The notes: generated from the letters alone by a model not told the origin. DNA of 64,000 bases from an uncultured Bacilli bacterium (GCA_910584165.1 CAJTZU010000003.1:126576-190575), one strand, 5' to 3'. Shown: positions 2,095 to 9,025, counted from the first letter of the stretch. Program-made: numbers and translations.

Positions 2095-2121
2095 AAATAG
2101 AGAATAATCTCTATTTTTTTT
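2095..2121. terminator. Bidirectional rho-independent terminator between convergent genes.
   Basis: 9-bp stem AAATAGAGA/TCTCTATTT with loop ATAA and T-run TTTTTTTT. On the opposite strand it gives the A/T-flanked hairpin for the TetR gene. Confidence 0.6.
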
Positions 2122-2692
2122 CACCAATTTTATCAGGTATCAATAAGTCTAAGAAACTAATTAAATCCTCTTTTGTATATTTCTGATAGTCTGTTAACCA
2201 TTTTATAGAAACATTTACGACTGCTCCTACATAAAAATTAGTAATGATTTCTTCAGGGACATTTAAATCATTTTTATTTTCTTCTTCTTTTAATCGCTTT
2301 GTTAAATCAGCATTAATCGTCGCATAAAAAATGTCCATGATAATACTATTTTTATTATTGATGATGATAGAAGAAAATAAATCTCTATTTTCCTCTATAT
2401 GTGTTAGAAATAAATTTAGCATCTCCATATAATATTCTTTTGTATTAGAGATATTTTTATTACTTCTAAGTTTTTCTGCTAATTCTTCTTTAATATCTTC
2501 AATACAAGAAGCTAGTAATTCATATTTATCAGTATAATGAGCATAGAAGGTAGAACGATTAATCAGTGCTTTATTACAAATATCAGAGACTTTAATTTCT
2601 TCGAAAGTATAATCTTTTAATAAACTAATTAGAGTTGTATATAATAAATTTTTTGTTTTAATAATCCGTAAGTCAACCTTTTTTTCTTTCAT
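2111..2692 (-). CDS. TetR/AcrR family transcriptional regulator.
   Basis: N-terminal HTH signature (TFEEIKVSDICNKALINRSTFYAHYTDKYELL). About 190 aa. Divergent from the MMPL transporter gene. Confidence 0.8.
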   Translation of the reverse strand: MKEKKVDLRIIKTKNLLYTTLISLLKDYTFEEIKVSDICNKALINRSTFYAHYTDKYELLASCIEDIKEELAEKLRSNKNISNTKEYYMEMLNLFLTHIEENRDLFSSIIINNKNSIIMDIFYATINADLTKRLKEEENKNDLNVPEEIITNFYVGAVVNVSIKWLTDYQKYTKEDLISFLDLLIPDKIGEKK

Positions 2693-2874
2693 AATATCAC
2701 CTGAGAATATTATACTATTTTTTACTACAAAGTAAAGATAAACTACAATGAGTATGATATTTATACATACATTTCAATAAAATTGTTGGATAAAATACAA
2801 ATCAATTTATTCTGTGCGTGATATTTGTAGAAAAAAATAATAAAATGTTATGACGGATGGAGGGAAAAACAAAT

Positions 2875-5800
2875 ATGAAAAAATTTGGTGAATTTATTTG
2901 CAAACACAAAATAGGTGTTTTCCTATTATCATTAGTTCTATTAGCTGTTTCCTTTTTTGGAAATGCTATGACTAGAATTAATTATGATATTTTAGTTTAT
3001 ATTCCAGAAGATATCGAAACTGTTGAGGGACAAAATATTTTAACGGAAGAATTTAATATGGGGGCTTTCTCAGTAACCATAATCGATAATATGAAACCGA
3101 AAGATGTTTTAGCATTAGAAGAAAAGTTAAAACACGTAGAGGGAGTAAATAAAGTAGTCAGTTTATATGATGTGATAGGAACTACTATTCCACTTGAATT
3201 TTTACCAGAAGAAATTGTTTCAAAAGTGCATCAAGGTGAATCTGATTTACTCTTAATTACTTTTCAAGATTCGACTTCTTCAGAATCTACGTTAGAAGCT
3301 GTTTCTGAAATACGTAAAATTACAAAAGAATCTTGTAAGGTAAGTGGTATGAGCTCAATGGTATTAGATACAATGGAGTTATCAGAAAAAGAAATTGCTA
3401 TTTATGTATGTATTGCTGTAGCTCTTTGTTTATTAGTATTAGAATTATCCTTAGATTCATATTTAGTACCAATATTATTATTAGCTAATATAGGATTTGC
3501 AATTCTATTTAATTTAGGTTCTAATATTATTTTTGGAGAGATTTCTTATATTACAAAAGCATTAGTTGCGGTATTACAGTTAGGTGTTACAACTGATTTT
3601 TCTATCTTTTTGTATCATGCATATGAGAAGGAAAAAGAATTTTGTAAGGCAAAAGAAGAGGCAATGAGTAAGGCGATTCATTCAACATTTACATCTGTAA
3701 CAGGAAGCTCTTTAACAACTATTGCAGGATTTTTAGTATTATGCACTATGAAACTTACTCTTGGTACTGATTTAGGTTTAGTTATGGCGAAAGGAGTACT
3801 ATTAGGGGTTATTTGTGTTTTAACACTTTTCCCAAGTTTATTATTAATTTTTGATAAGTGGATAGAAGGTAGTAGACATCGTTCCATTATTCCTAATTTT
3901 TCAAAATTAAATAGTTGGATTATTAAATATCATATCCCAATATTTATTATTTTCTTAATTTTTTTAGTACCTATGTATTTAGCGTATTCTAAAGTTGATG
4001 TGTACTATAAGATAGATGAGAGTTTACCAAAATCACTTGAAAGTATTACAGCTAATGAAGCATTGAAGGAGGATTTTAATATTGTTTCCCCAGAAATAAT
4101 TCTACTAGATAAAAATATGAAGGCAAGTGATGTAAATGAAATGATAGAGAAAATTGAAGATTTAGATGGTATTGAATTTGTATTATCTTTTTCAAAATTG
4201 AAAGAAAGAGGACTTACAGAAGAAATGCTATCAGAGGATATTGTTTCAGTTTTTGAGAATGACAACTATCAAATGCTTTTAGTAAATTCTAGCTATGAGA
4301 TAGCAAGTAATGAATTGAATGAGCAAATAGAAAAAGTAAATGAAATTTTAAAAGAATATGATTCTAAAGCCATTCTAGCAGGTGAAGGACCTCTTATGAA
4401 TGATTTAGTTACTATTAGTGATCAAGACTTTAGAAATGTAAATGATTCTTCGATTGTTTGTGTTTTATTAATTATGTTTGTTATTTTAAAGTCATTATCA
4501 TTACCATTTTTATTAATATTAACTATTGAATTTGCAATATTTACGAATATGTCTTTTTCTTACTTTGGCGGAGCAGTTTTACCTTTTGTAGCGCCAATTG
4601 TATTAGGAACAATTCAATTAGGAGCAACTATTGATTATGCTATATTAATGACAACAACTTATATAGAAAATAGAAAATTAGAGAGTGATAAAAAGAAGGC
4701 TATGCAAAAGACTTTAGATTATTGTGGAATCTCTATTGTAGTAAGTGGATTATGTTTTTTTGCAGCTACATTTGGAGTAGGTTTATATTCTGAAATAGAT
4801 ATGGTAGGAAGTTTATGCACATTAATTTCTAGAGGTGCCATTATTAGTATGGCAGTAGTACTTATGGTACTTCCTTCTATTTTATTAATATTTGATAAGA
4901 TTATTTTTAAAACGACTTATCACAGAAAGGAGAAAAATATGAAAAATTTAAAAAAAGTGGCAGCCAGTTTTTTAGTAACTTGTATTGCTATTAGTTCAAT
5001 GCCCGTTTCTGCATTAACAAAGGATGAGACAGTTTATACAAAATTAAATACAGATGGTAGTAGAAAGTCTACTTTTGCAATCGAGCATTTAATAAATAAT
5101 GAAAATCTAGATACGATTGAAGATTTGTCTAATTTAAAGAATGTATGGAATATGAATAGCAATCATACATTTAAACAAGAAAAGAATAAATATACATGGT
5201 CTTCTTTAGGTAGTGACATTTATTATCAAGGTATTGTAGAAAAGGATACTCCTGTTACAGAAAGTATAAAATACTATTTAGATGGTAAAGAGAGTACAAT
5301 TCCAGATATGCTTGGAAAAAGTGGAAAAATTAAAATAGAAATTACATATACTAATCATGATAAGCATCAGGTAAAAGTTGCTGGAAAAGAGGAAACTTTA
5401 TATACACCTTTTGTTGTAACAACAGCAACTGTTATTTCTAGTTCTAATAATAAAAATGTAGAAGTAACAAATGGAAAAGTAGTAAGTAATGGTTCCTCTT
5501 ATGTAGTCGTTGCTTTATCCGCACCAGGTTTATATGAAAGTTTAAACATGGATACTTTAAAGGATTTAAATACTGTTATTTTAAGTTATGAAACAGATAA
5601 ATTTGAACTTTCTAGTATTTATTCTATTACTACTCCAAAATTAATTGAAACAGAAGATTTAGAAATTTTCAATAAATTAGATTCTATGTATGATAAATCA
5701 AAATTATTAAAGGATTCTATTGATAAAATAGAAGAGGGCTCTATTGAATTATTAGAAGGAAGTAAAAAGATTGAAAGTGGTTCTAGTTTACTTTATGAAA

Positions 5801-6654
5801 AATTAGAACTTGTATTAGAAAGTATTGGAAGTGTAAAAGATGGTGCGGTTGCACTAGATGACGGATTAAAACAAATCTTAGGACAATTACAATTAATAGA
5901 AAAAGAACTAGAAAATGGAATTAGTGAAAGTAGTATTCAAAGTTTAAAAAGATTGATTTCTACTAATCAAAATACAATGAATCAGTTAATAGAAACGAAT
6001 AAGGGATTAGCTAGTGTTTATGAGCAATATCAATTAAAAAATTATAGTTATGAGCAAGTAATTCAAATGGATTCTACTATGAAATTATATAATGTAAAAA
6101 TGAATTATGAAAATCTATATGAAAAAAATACTCAAATGATTACTCTATTAGGAATGAATAATAAGGCATTAGAAGAAACTTTGAGCAATGTTTCTATGCT
6201 CCAAGAAAAGATTCAGACATTAATTAGTACTTTAAATCTTTATTTATCTCAGTTAGAAGATGGCGCTAAAAAATTATCTGATGGAACTGCTTCACTAAAA
6301 GAAGGAGTAGCTATTATTACTTCTAAAACAAAAGATTTAAAGAATGGAACAAAAGATTTAAAAGAGGGAATTCATACTTTACAAACTGGCATTCATGAAT
6401 TTAATAAGGAAGGTATTACTCCTATTACAAACTTTTTAAACCAAGATGTAAGAAAAGTTACTAATAAAATGGAAGCTCTTGTAAAGTTAAGTGAAGATTA
6501 TCAAACATTTACTATGAAAGATAATAGTACTAATGGTAGTACGAAATTTATTTCAGTAGTGGATTCTGTTAAAATTCCTAAAGAAGTAAAAAAGGTTGAA
6601 AAGAAAAAAGAAAAAACTACATTTATTGATAGAGTAAAAAATTTATTTCAATAA
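2875..6654 (+). CDS. MMPL-family (RND-like) membrane transporter fused in frame to a C-terminal YhgE/Pip-like domain. The C-terminal part has XXXLXXG heptad repeats and coiled coil.
   Basis: The track ORF is 2857..6654. The better start is ATG 2875 after GGAGGG 2860-2865. Two 6-TM bundles, each preceded by a periplasmic domain, fit MMPL topology. The C-terminal half has repeated LxxGxxxLxxG motifs (LLEGSKKIESGSSLL, LDDGLKQILGQLQ, LSDGTASLKEGVAII, LKNGTKDLKEGIHTLQTGIHEF). An internal RBS, ATG and signal-peptide-like segment sit at 4927-5010. Confidence 0.7.
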   Translation: MKKFGEFICKHKIGVFLLSLVLLAVSFFGNAMTRINYDILVYIPEDIETVEGQNILTEEFNMGAFSVTIIDNMKPKDVLALEEKLKHVEGVNKVVSLYDVIGTTIPLEFLPEEIVSKVHQGESDLLLITFQDSTSSESTLEAVSEIRKITKESCKVSGMSSMVLDTMELSEKEIAIYVCIAVALCLLVLELSLDSYLVPILLLANIGFAILFNLGSNIIFGEISYITKALVAVLQLGVTTDFSIFLYHAYEKEKEFCKAKEEAMSKAIHSTFTSVTGSSLTTIAGFLVLCTMKLTLGTDLGLVMAKGVLLGVICVLTLFPSLLLIFDKWIEGSRHRSIIPNFSKLNSWIIKYHIPIFIIFLIFLVPMYLAYSKVDVYYKIDESLPKSLESITANEALKEDFNIVSPEIILLDKNMKASDVNEMIEKIEDLDGIEFVLSFSKLKERGLTEEMLSEDIVSVFENDNYQMLLVNSSYEIASNELNEQIEKVNEILKEYDSKAILAGEGPLMNDLVTISDQDFRNVNDSSIVCVLLIMFVILKSLSLPFLLILTIEFAIFTNMSFSYFGGAVLPFVAPIVLGTIQLGATIDYAILMTTTYIENRKLESDKKKAMQKTLDYCGISIVVSGLCFFAATFGVGLYSEIDMVGSLCTLISRGAIISMAVVLMVLPSILLIFDKIIFKTTYHRKEKNMKNLKKVAASFLVTCIAISSMPVSALTKDETVYTKLNTDGSRKSTFAIEHLINNENLDTIEDLSNLKNVWNMNSNHTFKQEKNKYTWSSLGSDIYYQGIVEKDTPVTESIKYYLDGKESTIPDMLGKSGKIKIEITYTNHDKHQVKVAGKEETLYTPFVVTTATVISSSNNKNVEVTNGKVVSNGSSYVVVALSAPGLYESLNMDTLKDLNTVILSYETDKFELSSIYSITTPKLIETEDLEIFNKLDSMYDKSKLLKDSIDKIEEGSIELLEGSKKIESGSSLLYEKLELVLESIGSVKDGAVALDDGLKQILGQLQLIEKELENGISESSIQSLKRLISTNQNTMNQLIETNKGLASVYEQYQLKNYSYEQVIQMDSTMKLYNVKMNYENLYEKNTQMITLLGMNNKALEETLSNVSMLQEKIQTLISTLNLYLSQLEDGAKKLSDGTASLKEGVAIITSKTKDLKNGTKDLKEGIHTLQTGIHEFNKEGITPITNFLNQDVRKVTNKMEALVKLSEDYQTFTMKDNSTNGSTKFISVVDSVKIPKEVKKVEKKKEKTTFIDRVKNLFQ

Positions 6655-8395: not shown

Positions 8396-9025
8396 ATGAA
8401 AATAGTAAATCCTAAAATAAAAGAATTAGAAATTGGAAATTTGCACGAAACGATTAAAACTGGTGATTTATCTTTTTTTCAATATGAAAAGGAAAGAATA
8501 TTGGGGAAATATAATATTTCCGATTGTACGATAGATAGTTGTATTTTTAAAAATATTTCATTTGAAAATATTTCATTTGAAAATGTAGAGTTAGTAGATG
8601 TCATTTTTGAAAACTGTGATTTATCTAATAAATGCTTTGATAAAGAAGCTGTCATTCGAGTTATTTTTAAAAATTGTAAGATGACTGGTACAACATTTAT
8701 GGATAGCAAATTAGAAAATATTCAGTTTTTAGAGTGTAGCAATAAATATGTGAATTTTGCTAGTGCAAGTATGACAAATGTTATAATAAAAGATAGTGAT
8801 TTTGAAGAAACCTCCTTTCTAAGTACTAAAATAAAAAATCTAGAATTAGACAATGTTAAATTTAAAGGTGCAGAGTTTATCGGTACTACTTTAAAAGATG
8901 TAGATTTTTCTAATTCTGATATTTATGGAGCTAAATTTGATGTTAATTCTTTAAAAGATATGATTATTGATTCTATGCAAGCATCTGTTTTAGTGGGCCT
9001 TTTAGGAGTAAAAATAAAAGATTAA
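8396..9025 (+). CDS. Pentapeptide-repeat protein.
   Basis: Consecutive A(D/N)LxF-like pentapeptides (NISFENISFENVELVDVIFENCDLSNKCF...). Contains a perfect 15-nt tandem duplication at 8552-8581. Confidence 0.7.
   Translation: MKIVNPKIKELEIGNLHETIKTGDLSFFQYEKERILGKYNISDCTIDSCIFKNISFENISFENVELVDVIFENCDLSNKCFDKEAVIRVIFKNCKMTGTTFMDSKLENIQFLECSNKYVNFASASMTNVIIKDSDFEETSFLSTKIKNLELDNVKFKGAEFIGTTLKDVDFSNSDIYGAKFDVNSLKDMIIDSMQASVLVGLLGVKIKD

Follow-up and report, generated by a model that had tools for sequence, protein, structure and literature searches.

The window analysed here, a stretch of 64,000 nucleotides (nt) from an uncultured Bacilli bacterium (GCA_910584165.1, CAJTZU010000003.1:126576-190575), carries on its plus strand one open reading frame (ORF), 2875..6654, of 1259 amino acids plus stop, in which an MMPL transporter is followed by a linker, a signal peptide or 13th transmembrane (TM) segment, a beta domain and a helical hairpin. 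We consider it likely that this gene is an evolutionarily maintained fusion of a proton-driven MMPL (RND) exporter with a dedicated extracytoplasmic partner, and that free or released partner is still made. The locus belongs to a widespread, previously undescribed fusion/fission polymorphism of an MMPL pump and a stalk-like partner; no description of an MMPL-partner fusion or of the partner family was found in the literature.

Fused and split forms of the locus

The stop-to-stop ORF runs from 2857 to 6654 (+) without interruption and corresponds to 1265 residues. The likely start is the ATG at 2875, which gives 1259 residues; it is favoured because GGAGG (about 2859-2863) lies about 11 nt upstream and orthologues start with MKKFG.... 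An earlier reading made from the sequence only (the sequence-only reading) had placed a 1265-residue ORF at 2875-6654; the position holds, and the length goes with the start at 2857. The first half comprises residues 1-688 and the second half the last 571 residues, in frame, and the description of a 12-TM MMPL half joined without a stop to a 571-residue half agrees with both the Pfam MMPL match and the hydropathy profile.

The fusion is genuine, and a stop missing through sequencing error is excluded. The exact 1259-residue and 1265-residue products are both present in a public protein collection, and 19 contigs, assembled from independent JGI and ENA metagenome samples, carry the identical 1265-residue form with the synteny of the window. 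For the DNA survey, one genome was taken per GTDB species, and the best 80 of 374 relatives were kept. To test the frame, tblastn anchors were set at the C-terminal end of MMPL and the N-terminal end of the partner and the frame was walked from stop to stop, TGA being read as a stop. Of these best 80 species, 61 carry the in-frame fusion and 19 have two adjacent genes, and 58 intact fused ORFs encode 1188-1302 residues. The option of a missing stop or recent stop loss, raised in the sequence-only reading, is thus refuted by the identical product on 19 contigs and by the fused state in 61 of 80 related species. The survey hosts are nearly all metagenome-assembled genomes of uncultured gut 'Bacilli/Tenericutes/Mycoplasma sp.', together with Coprobacillus sp. 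CAG:605, whose 1260-residue protein, annotated solely as 'mMPL family protein', stands for a 327-sequence cluster. An MMPL gene lies immediately 5' of the partner in all 87 loci examined.

The window clusters with two fused loci, L006 (80% identity) and L007 (69%), both with the junction gaaaggagaaaaa(t/a)ATG. In the split locus L001 the MMPL protein has 687 residues and its TGA overlaps the partner ATG (ATGA), one base of an A-run away from its fused sisters. In L002 and L003 a TAA is followed by 1 nt and the ATG, L075 is split by a single in-frame TAA right before the ATG, and L083 has in-frame stops in the linker. Subdoligranulum variabile (Clostridia; locus L093) also has a split pair: its MMPL protein, 43% identical to the MMPL part of the window over the full length, ends in ...TTYHWLSKEKETKTV followed by the stop, aaggag lies in the last codons, and the TGA overlaps the partner ATG (ATGA); the counterpart of this end in the window reads ...TTYHRKEKN-M. 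The L093 sequence is OY725868.1, 267898-278494, from a 305-kb unannotated record labelled 'plasmid 34', in which the partner ORF is longer, with 851 residues listed from an upstream GTG. The idea that the halves were once separate genes is borne out in that they are two adjacent co-oriented genes in L001, L002, L075 and Subdoligranulum, and the comparison of orthologues proposed along with it reveals both states (61/80 fused, 19/80 split).

Fitch parsimony on a neighbour-joining tree of the partner from the 87 loci gives about eight changes of state. Split singletons (L001, L002, L036, L042, L073) are nested among fused species, and the state switches by 1-nt indels or a single stop codon. Since the Subdoligranulum pair is split with an ATGA overlap, a translationally coupled split pair is probably ancestral, and fusion probably came about in gut Bacilli and was reverted several times.

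When the second half was used as query, the first protein search gave hardly anything but proteins of 520-650 residues. These lengths were rejected as evidence for two genes, as N-gaps in the scaffolds interrupt the fused loci that encode two of the proteins (P0002 and P0004). The gaps lie in the 3' end of the MMPL gene (3879-3978 in L087 for P0004, 1759-1768 in L088 for P0002) and create false 'stand-alone' partners of 565/566 residues; behind each of them the MMPL C-terminus continues in frame into the partner. Therefore, protein-length censuses of the partner family are biased towards split forms. In addition, the word-indexed protein search missed the window's own cluster and full-length fusions in the collection (P0166-P0168, P0121 and others), and only the partial fusions P0097 and P0098 were returned.

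Probable internal start and signal peptide at the junction

The MMPL part ends in a basic cytoplasmic linker (residues 674-688, DKIIFKTTYHRKEKN; 4894..4938, +), and the 21-residue stretch that separates TM12 from the following hydrophobic segment (695-713) has eight Lys/Arg residues. The linker peptide differs among orthologues (RKEKN, MKGKSN, KKRGKS, KERKDKN, GKDDIK). The junction DNA reads ...aca gaa agg aga aaa ata tga... and comprises an internal Shine-Dalgarno (SD) motif, AAGGAG, at 4927..4932 (+) inside the codons AGA-AAG-GAG, a 6-nt spacer and an in-frame ATG at 4939..4941 (+), which encodes Met689 and corresponds to the partner start codon in split orthologues. The tract is A-rich (gagaaaaatatgaaaaatttaaaaaaa), and the peptide after the ATG is MKNLKKVAASFLVTCIAISSMPVSALT, also given as MKNLKKVAASFLVTCIAISSMPVSALTKDETVY. 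The AAGGAG, the ATG and the signal-like segment are all located where the sequence-only reading had put them. The internal ATG is kept in 65/65 fused and 22/22 split loci, and in all 65 fused loci it sits 21-32 codons ahead of the conserved motif LTK(D/E)ETVY.

The SD was scored as the pairing energy of positions -20..-3 with the anti-SD ACCUCCUUU. At the 65 fused junctions the median is -5.9 kcal/mol, with 94% at or below -5.5 and 28% at or below -8.5 kcal/mol; the window itself has -9.0 kcal/mol. The 2077 other in-frame ATGs of the same ORFs have a median of -0.9 kcal/mol, and 9.6% and 0.6% of them reach these two thresholds. The 22 split partner starts all lie at or below -5.5 kcal/mol (59% at or below -8.5; median -8.85), and among the MMPL genes' own starts in fused loci (n=59) 80% lie at or below -8.5 kcal/mol, with a median of -9.3. 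The GG core of the fused junctions is found 6-16 nt 5' of the ATG, most often 12-13 nt, and is spread over all three codon phases (34/8/21) despite the varying linker peptide. The seven upstream codons of 49 distinct junctions were then recoded synonymously according to each gene's own codon usage. The observed mean SD energy is -7.1 kcal/mol, versus -4.4 for the recodings (Wilcoxon p 6e-10, inflated by the shared ancestry of the species), and for the window 7% of recodings attain the observed -9.0 kcal/mol. Meanwhile, GAG makes up 17 of the 34 Glu codons at the junctions versus 15% elsewhere, GGA 28 of the 35 Gly codons versus 41%, and AAG 30% of the Lys codons versus 17.5%. The SD and the start codon are conserved at the nucleotide level beyond what the amino acids need, and this pattern, even though the statistics take no account of shared ancestry, is hard to attribute to protein-level constraint alone. 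It gives indirect support to the separate expression of the second half that the sequence-only reading had considered. Internal initiation, cleavage of the fused product, or both are likely. A promoter scan stayed at chance level (33 sites vs 29.7 expected). No terminator was detected either, and the surroundings of the junction gave no signal.

The segment that begins with the internal ATG (4939..5013, +; MKNLKKVAASFLVTCIAISSMPVSA) has the features of a Sec-type signal peptide in the window, namely an n-region (MKNLKK), an h-region (VAASFLVTCIAISS) and a helix breaker with small residues at -3 and -1 (MPVSA|L), and a signal-peptidase-I site is predicted after Ala25 (VSA|LT). In fused and split forms alike it spans about 26 residues, the n-region being basic and the uncharged run 19 residues long. 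Ala occupies position -1 in 60/61 fused and 20/20 split junctions, Val, Thr, Ala, Ser, Ile or Leu position -3 in all of both, and Pro is present within -8..-3 in 60/61 fused and 20/20 split; in these features the two forms are indistinguishable. Neither form has a conserved lipobox. The termini of RND proteins are cytoplasmic. Because of this cytoplasmic C-terminus and the strongly basic linker, the segment would insert in-to-out as a 13th TM, so that the rest of the partner would lie outside and the signal-peptidase-I-type site would be exposed. The fusion may then be cleaved by signal peptidase, as the composition of the segment suggests. Internal signal peptides are processed in polyproteins, for example in rhizobial FbcH, the cytochrome b-c1 precursor of Bradyrhizobium japonicum, which is split at an internal signal peptide. 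In both products the C-terminus of a membrane protein lies in the cytoplasm and the reading frame continues through a signal peptide into an exported domain, which signal peptidase could set free; the present one differs in that cleavage is a prediction and an internal translation start is conserved as well.

The MMPL transporter, its partner and related systems

The transporter body covers residues 1-673 (2875..4893, +) and consists of TM1, a 142-residue loop, TM2-6, TM7, a 157-residue loop and TM8-12. Pfam MMPL (PF03176) matches the first half in two stretches (E 2.9e-55, 188 bits vs a cut-off of 20.5), and the hydropathy profile, a crude one in which two TM segments are split into overlapping peaks, gives the 12-TM RND topology of 1+5 / 1+5 segments with large loops after TM1 and TM7. 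The alignment to TIGR00921 (HAE3) spans residues 15-671. None of the NCBIfam equivalog or subfamily cut-offs (MmpL3, HpnN, BstA, actII) is reached, with 199.5 vs 874.7 for TIGR00833 and 138.6 vs 351.9 for TIGR00921, and the transporter half is an MMPL protein outside any named subfamily. Among solved structures, MmpL4 and MmpL5 are its closest relatives (E ~1e-15). Two pseudo-symmetric motifs, LQLG(V/A)T-x-D(F/Y), are read from the translation and conserved in Subdoligranulum: LQLGVTTDF in TM4, with Asp241 (3595..3597, +), and IQLGATIDY in TM10, with its counterpart Asp587-Tyr588 (4633-4638, +). These are candidate proton-relay residues, a role proposed on the basis of the Asp-Tyr pairs of MmpL3.

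The partner was modelled with AlphaFold2 as a monomer from a 23-sequence alignment (mean predicted local distance difference test score 84.5). In the model the signal helix is followed by a conserved beta-rich domain (partner residues 26-232; 5014..5634, +), a long antiparallel alpha-helical hairpin (238-520; 5650..6498, +), a beta strand that goes back to the beta domain (532-541; 6532..6561, +), a Lys/Glu-rich spacer and the terminal helix FIDRVKNLF. This C-terminal helix lies within the conserved TFIDRVKNLFQ (6622..6651, +), in which K567 and F570 are near-invariant. The returning helix of the hairpin has about 139 residues and a predicted length of about 20 nm. Conservation is highest in the beta domain (0.56-0.71) and lowest in the distal hairpin (0.27-0.37), the length of which varies between 86 and 193 residues among species. 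In the window this hypervariable part corresponds to 5800-6250 (partner residues ~285-435) and is Tyr-rich (YEQYQLKNYSYEQV...KLYNVKMNYENLYEK). Differences in envelope thickness could underlie the variability of the distal hairpin, as could outside pressure, for example from phage or host.

The only NCBIfam model above its cut-off in the second half is TIGR03057, the xxxLxxG repeat (33.6 bits vs 18.6). There are 11 [LIVM]xxG heptads in four runs, with seven adjacent pairs vs 0.09 in shuffles. They are found on both arms of the hairpin near its base, namely on the outgoing helix as xxx[LIVM]xxG (residues 264-281 and 299-309; 5728..5865, +) and on the returning helix as xxxLxxG, where TIGR03057 matches (439-456 and 467-484; 6253..6390, +). 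The repeats noticed in the sequence-only reading are therefore real, and the richness it ascribed to the whole domain is not found, the heptads making up a modest share of the helical region. Its assignment to the YhgE/Pip type is dropped, as the repeat is all that is shared. NCBIfam and Pfam scans gave no match to TIGR03061, TIGR03062 or the ABC-2 membrane domain at E <= 0.1, and no TM follows the hairpin in the model.

The partner matches no Pfam family and no solved homologue. No MmpS family match was obtained in the Pfam and NCBIfam scans, nor was an MmpS chain present among the PDB sequence or fold matches. The precomputed Pfam labels of relatives (Mce4_CUP1, ATG17_like and others) all turned out on rescanning to be sub-threshold coiled-coil matches and were rejected, and the weak matches of the second half to MakA/MakE and Mce were set aside likewise. 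Beyond the gut clade the family is large: clustered at 50% identity, it has 8685 representatives at E <= 1e-3, of which 3088 reach E <= 1e-30; the best 150 of them are mostly stand-alone, and about seven are fused.

In Mycobacterium tuberculosis, the second outer loop of MmpL5 contains a coiled-coil insertion of 196 residues that forms a 13-nm trimeric tube; the tube is required for efflux and is stabilised by MmpS5, which consists of a TM helix and an Ig-like domain (PMC12501195). The locus resembles MmpL5/MmpS5 and MmpL4/MmpS4 in combining an MMPL pump with a small partner that has a TM helix at its N-terminus next to a beta domain, and with a long antiparallel coiled coil that projects outward. 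In contrast to MmpL5, the second outer loop here has 157 residues and the coiled coil is on the partner polypeptide, with a predicted hairpin of about 20 nm versus the 13-nm tube. At the sequence level the partner does not detectably resemble MmpS, and the likeness is architectural only. Moreover, unlike M. tuberculosis, the hosts are monoderm or wall-reduced gut Bacilli, in most close relatives of which the partner is fused to the pump C-terminus.

YhgE/Pip proteins (phage infection protein, including the EsaA/YueB type) share with the partner the theme of an N-terminal membrane segment from which a long helical stalk extends on the outside of the cell. The xxxLxxG repeat of TIGR03057 is a further likeness and is not specific to YhgE/Pip. 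However, the partner lacks their N- and C-terminal domain models and their C-terminal multi-TM domain and is always paired with MMPL. The match to EmrA-type periplasmic adaptors is driven by coiled coil; the partner has a mu-homology-like sandwich and not the lipoyl and beta-barrel domains of the HlyD family, and the hosts have no outer-membrane partner.

A divergent TetR-family regulator gene of 193 residues (2111..2692, -; Pfam TetR_C_8 E 2.2e-9, TetR_N E 1.2e-4) shares with the pump gene an intergenic control region with GGAGG (2693..2874), in which an operator search gave one weak inverted repeat only and the promoter scan did not exceed chance. A TetR homologue is in the same divergent position in 71 of the 71 loci that yielded a match. 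FarE, a staphylococcal MmpL-type fatty-acid efflux pump, is governed by the divergent TetR regulator FarR (PMC10019231). The locus thus resembles FarE/FarR of S. aureus as a Bacillota MMPL pump with a divergently transcribed TetR-family regulator, and differs in that the pump has a partner here, whereas FarE/FarR was described without one (PMC10019231). By analogy, the pump is probably under the control of this regulator, with an amphiphile as the ligand sensed.

Directly upstream of the TetR gene, a 546-residue ORF (453-2093, +) has no Pfam match at E <= 0.1 and the same synteny in contigs L089 and L091 of the same organism. A PF06541 (ABC_trans_CmpB) membrane-protein gene lies near the MMPL-partner module in four relatives (L004, 2851-3546; L005, 4155-4850; L087, 8147-8785, -; L088, 3613-4266, -); unlike in these relatives, the genes downstream in the window are housekeeping genes (RsmB-like methyltransferase, Ham1-like). 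A 209-residue ORF at 8396-9025 (+) is repetitive (NISFENISFENVELVDVIFENCDLSN...) and pentapeptide-repeat-like by eye. No Rfam family reached its gathering score in the 64-kb window (no tRNA, rRNA or riboswitch calls).

Possible mechanism and alternative explanations

A scheme consistent with these features would begin with a coupled pair, in which the SD of the partner lay in the last MMPL codons and the MMPL stop overlapped or abutted the partner ATG. A one-base indel or the loss of the stop in the A-rich linker then probably joined the two in frame. The fusion would be tolerated by insertion of the partner signal peptide as a 13th, in-to-out segment; with the MMPL C-terminus in the cytoplasm, the beta domain and the hairpin would end up outside just as in the split form. 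Within the fused ORF, selection has probably kept the SD, the ATG and the signal-peptidase-type site, so that free or released partner most likely still arises by internal initiation and/or cleavage. The fused and split states would thereby be nearly equivalent, and lineages would flip between them. As for the function, the MMPL part may extract a lipid, a fatty acid or another amphiphile from the membrane, and the partner may dock on the outer loops of the pump, form an oligomeric coiled-coil stalk along or through which the substrate crosses the envelope, and so fill the combined role of MmpS and the MmpL5 coiled coil. Both the oligomeric stalk and the substrate class are suggested by analogy; the divergent TetR, as in FarE/FarR, fits inducible export of an amphiphile.

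More speculatively, the locus may be a two-in-one gene. In a monoderm gut bacterium it would supply tethered stalk subunits and, from an internal start maintained by selection and perhaps also by cleavage, free Sec-exported ones, and the subunits would form an oligomeric conduit of about 20 nm on the MMPL pump. The partners would then represent a new class of RND accessory proteins (>3000 clusters at 50% identity, no Pfam family) and a Bacillota counterpart of MmpS plus the MmpL5 tube, with a tip possibly shaped by phage or host. This extended proposal is tentative and, in our estimation, more doubtful than probable.

Several points weigh against a maintained fusion with a stalk-like, separately available partner. 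In most fused lineages the internal SD (median -5.9) is weaker than at genuine starts (about -9), which may indicate partial decay. SD-like motifs can also serve as translational pause sites, frequent toggling could keep start signals that are unused while fused, and the p-values of the SD statistics are inflated for the reason given above. The root state is uncertain, Fitch parsimony on the 80 nearest loci giving 'fused' and the wider family being mostly stand-alone. The stalk proposal rests on the structure prediction of a monomer, and the structural matches of the partner are generic, consisting of coiled coils and a mu-homology-like sandwich at about 10% identity. The weaker SD of most fused lineages also speaks for the main live rival, in which the fusion is real, the internal SD, ATG and signal-peptidase site are now functionless relics, and a single uncleaved 1259-residue protein keeps the stalk tethered. 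This explanation could draw as well on a linker that is inherently purine-rich by its Lys, Arg, Glu and Gly content, on the eight or so changes of state among 87 loci, which could preserve signals, and on an uncharged run of 19 residues, long enough for a TM anchor, with the positive-inside rule as a possible constraint on the linker. We consider it unlikely. The motif is stronger than in synonymous recodings, codons that build an SD are two to three times as frequent at the junction as in the genes overall, and the SD is found in each of the three codon phases, with a linker peptide that differs among species. All 65 fused loci, including those of large all-fused clades, have kept the Met, which a tethered TM segment does not need, and the hallmarks of a cleavable signal, Pro at -8..-3 and Ala at -1, are present in 60/61 fused forms.

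The two other explanations differ from a maintained fusion of pump and partner in what they take the halves to be. If the second half were an independent YhgE/Pip surface protein (an adhesin or phage receptor) beside or fused to an unrelated MMPL pump, the heptads of TIGR03057 and the long exposed hairpin with its hypervariable distal part, as for a surface-exposed target, would be accounted for. The missing N-terminal, C-terminal and ABC-2 membrane domain matches at E <= 0.1 and the lack of a C-terminal TM bundle do not suit such a protein. In addition, the partner is immediately 3' of MMPL in 87/87 loci, and in Clostridia as well, overlapping or fused; this invariant adjacency argues for an obligate functional pair and leaves an independent surface protein very improbable. 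The remaining option, that the fusion is an artefact of assembly or sequencing or that a stop was lost very recently and the organism really has two genes, was suggested by the A-rich junction, which is prone to indel errors, and by the closest protein-database matches, which looked stand-alone. Two of these 'stand-alone' proteins are themselves N-gap artefacts in fused loci, the identical full-length product recurs on 19 contigs from independent samples, and L006, L007 and 59 further species share the in-frame junction, so that we give this explanation next to no weight.

RND/MMPL pumps of monoderms are poorly understood, and how their substrates cross the wall has only lately been addressed, in the case of mycobacterial MmpL4/5 by way of a coiled-coil tube. 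The locus points to a large unnamed family of partners that contribute, in trans or in cis, a beta domain together with a long coiled coil, and it is well suited to asking whether coiled-coil conduits are a general solution. Annotation pipelines label the product just 'MMPL family protein' and overlook the second module, while fragmented assemblies yield false 'stand-alone' partners. Sister species with fused and split genes, between which a single base change is enough to switch, offer a natural experiment on gene fusion and fission. The conserved internal start is a clean bacterial example in which to ask whether nested in-frame initiation and the processing of a polytopic fusion by signal peptidase are under selection.

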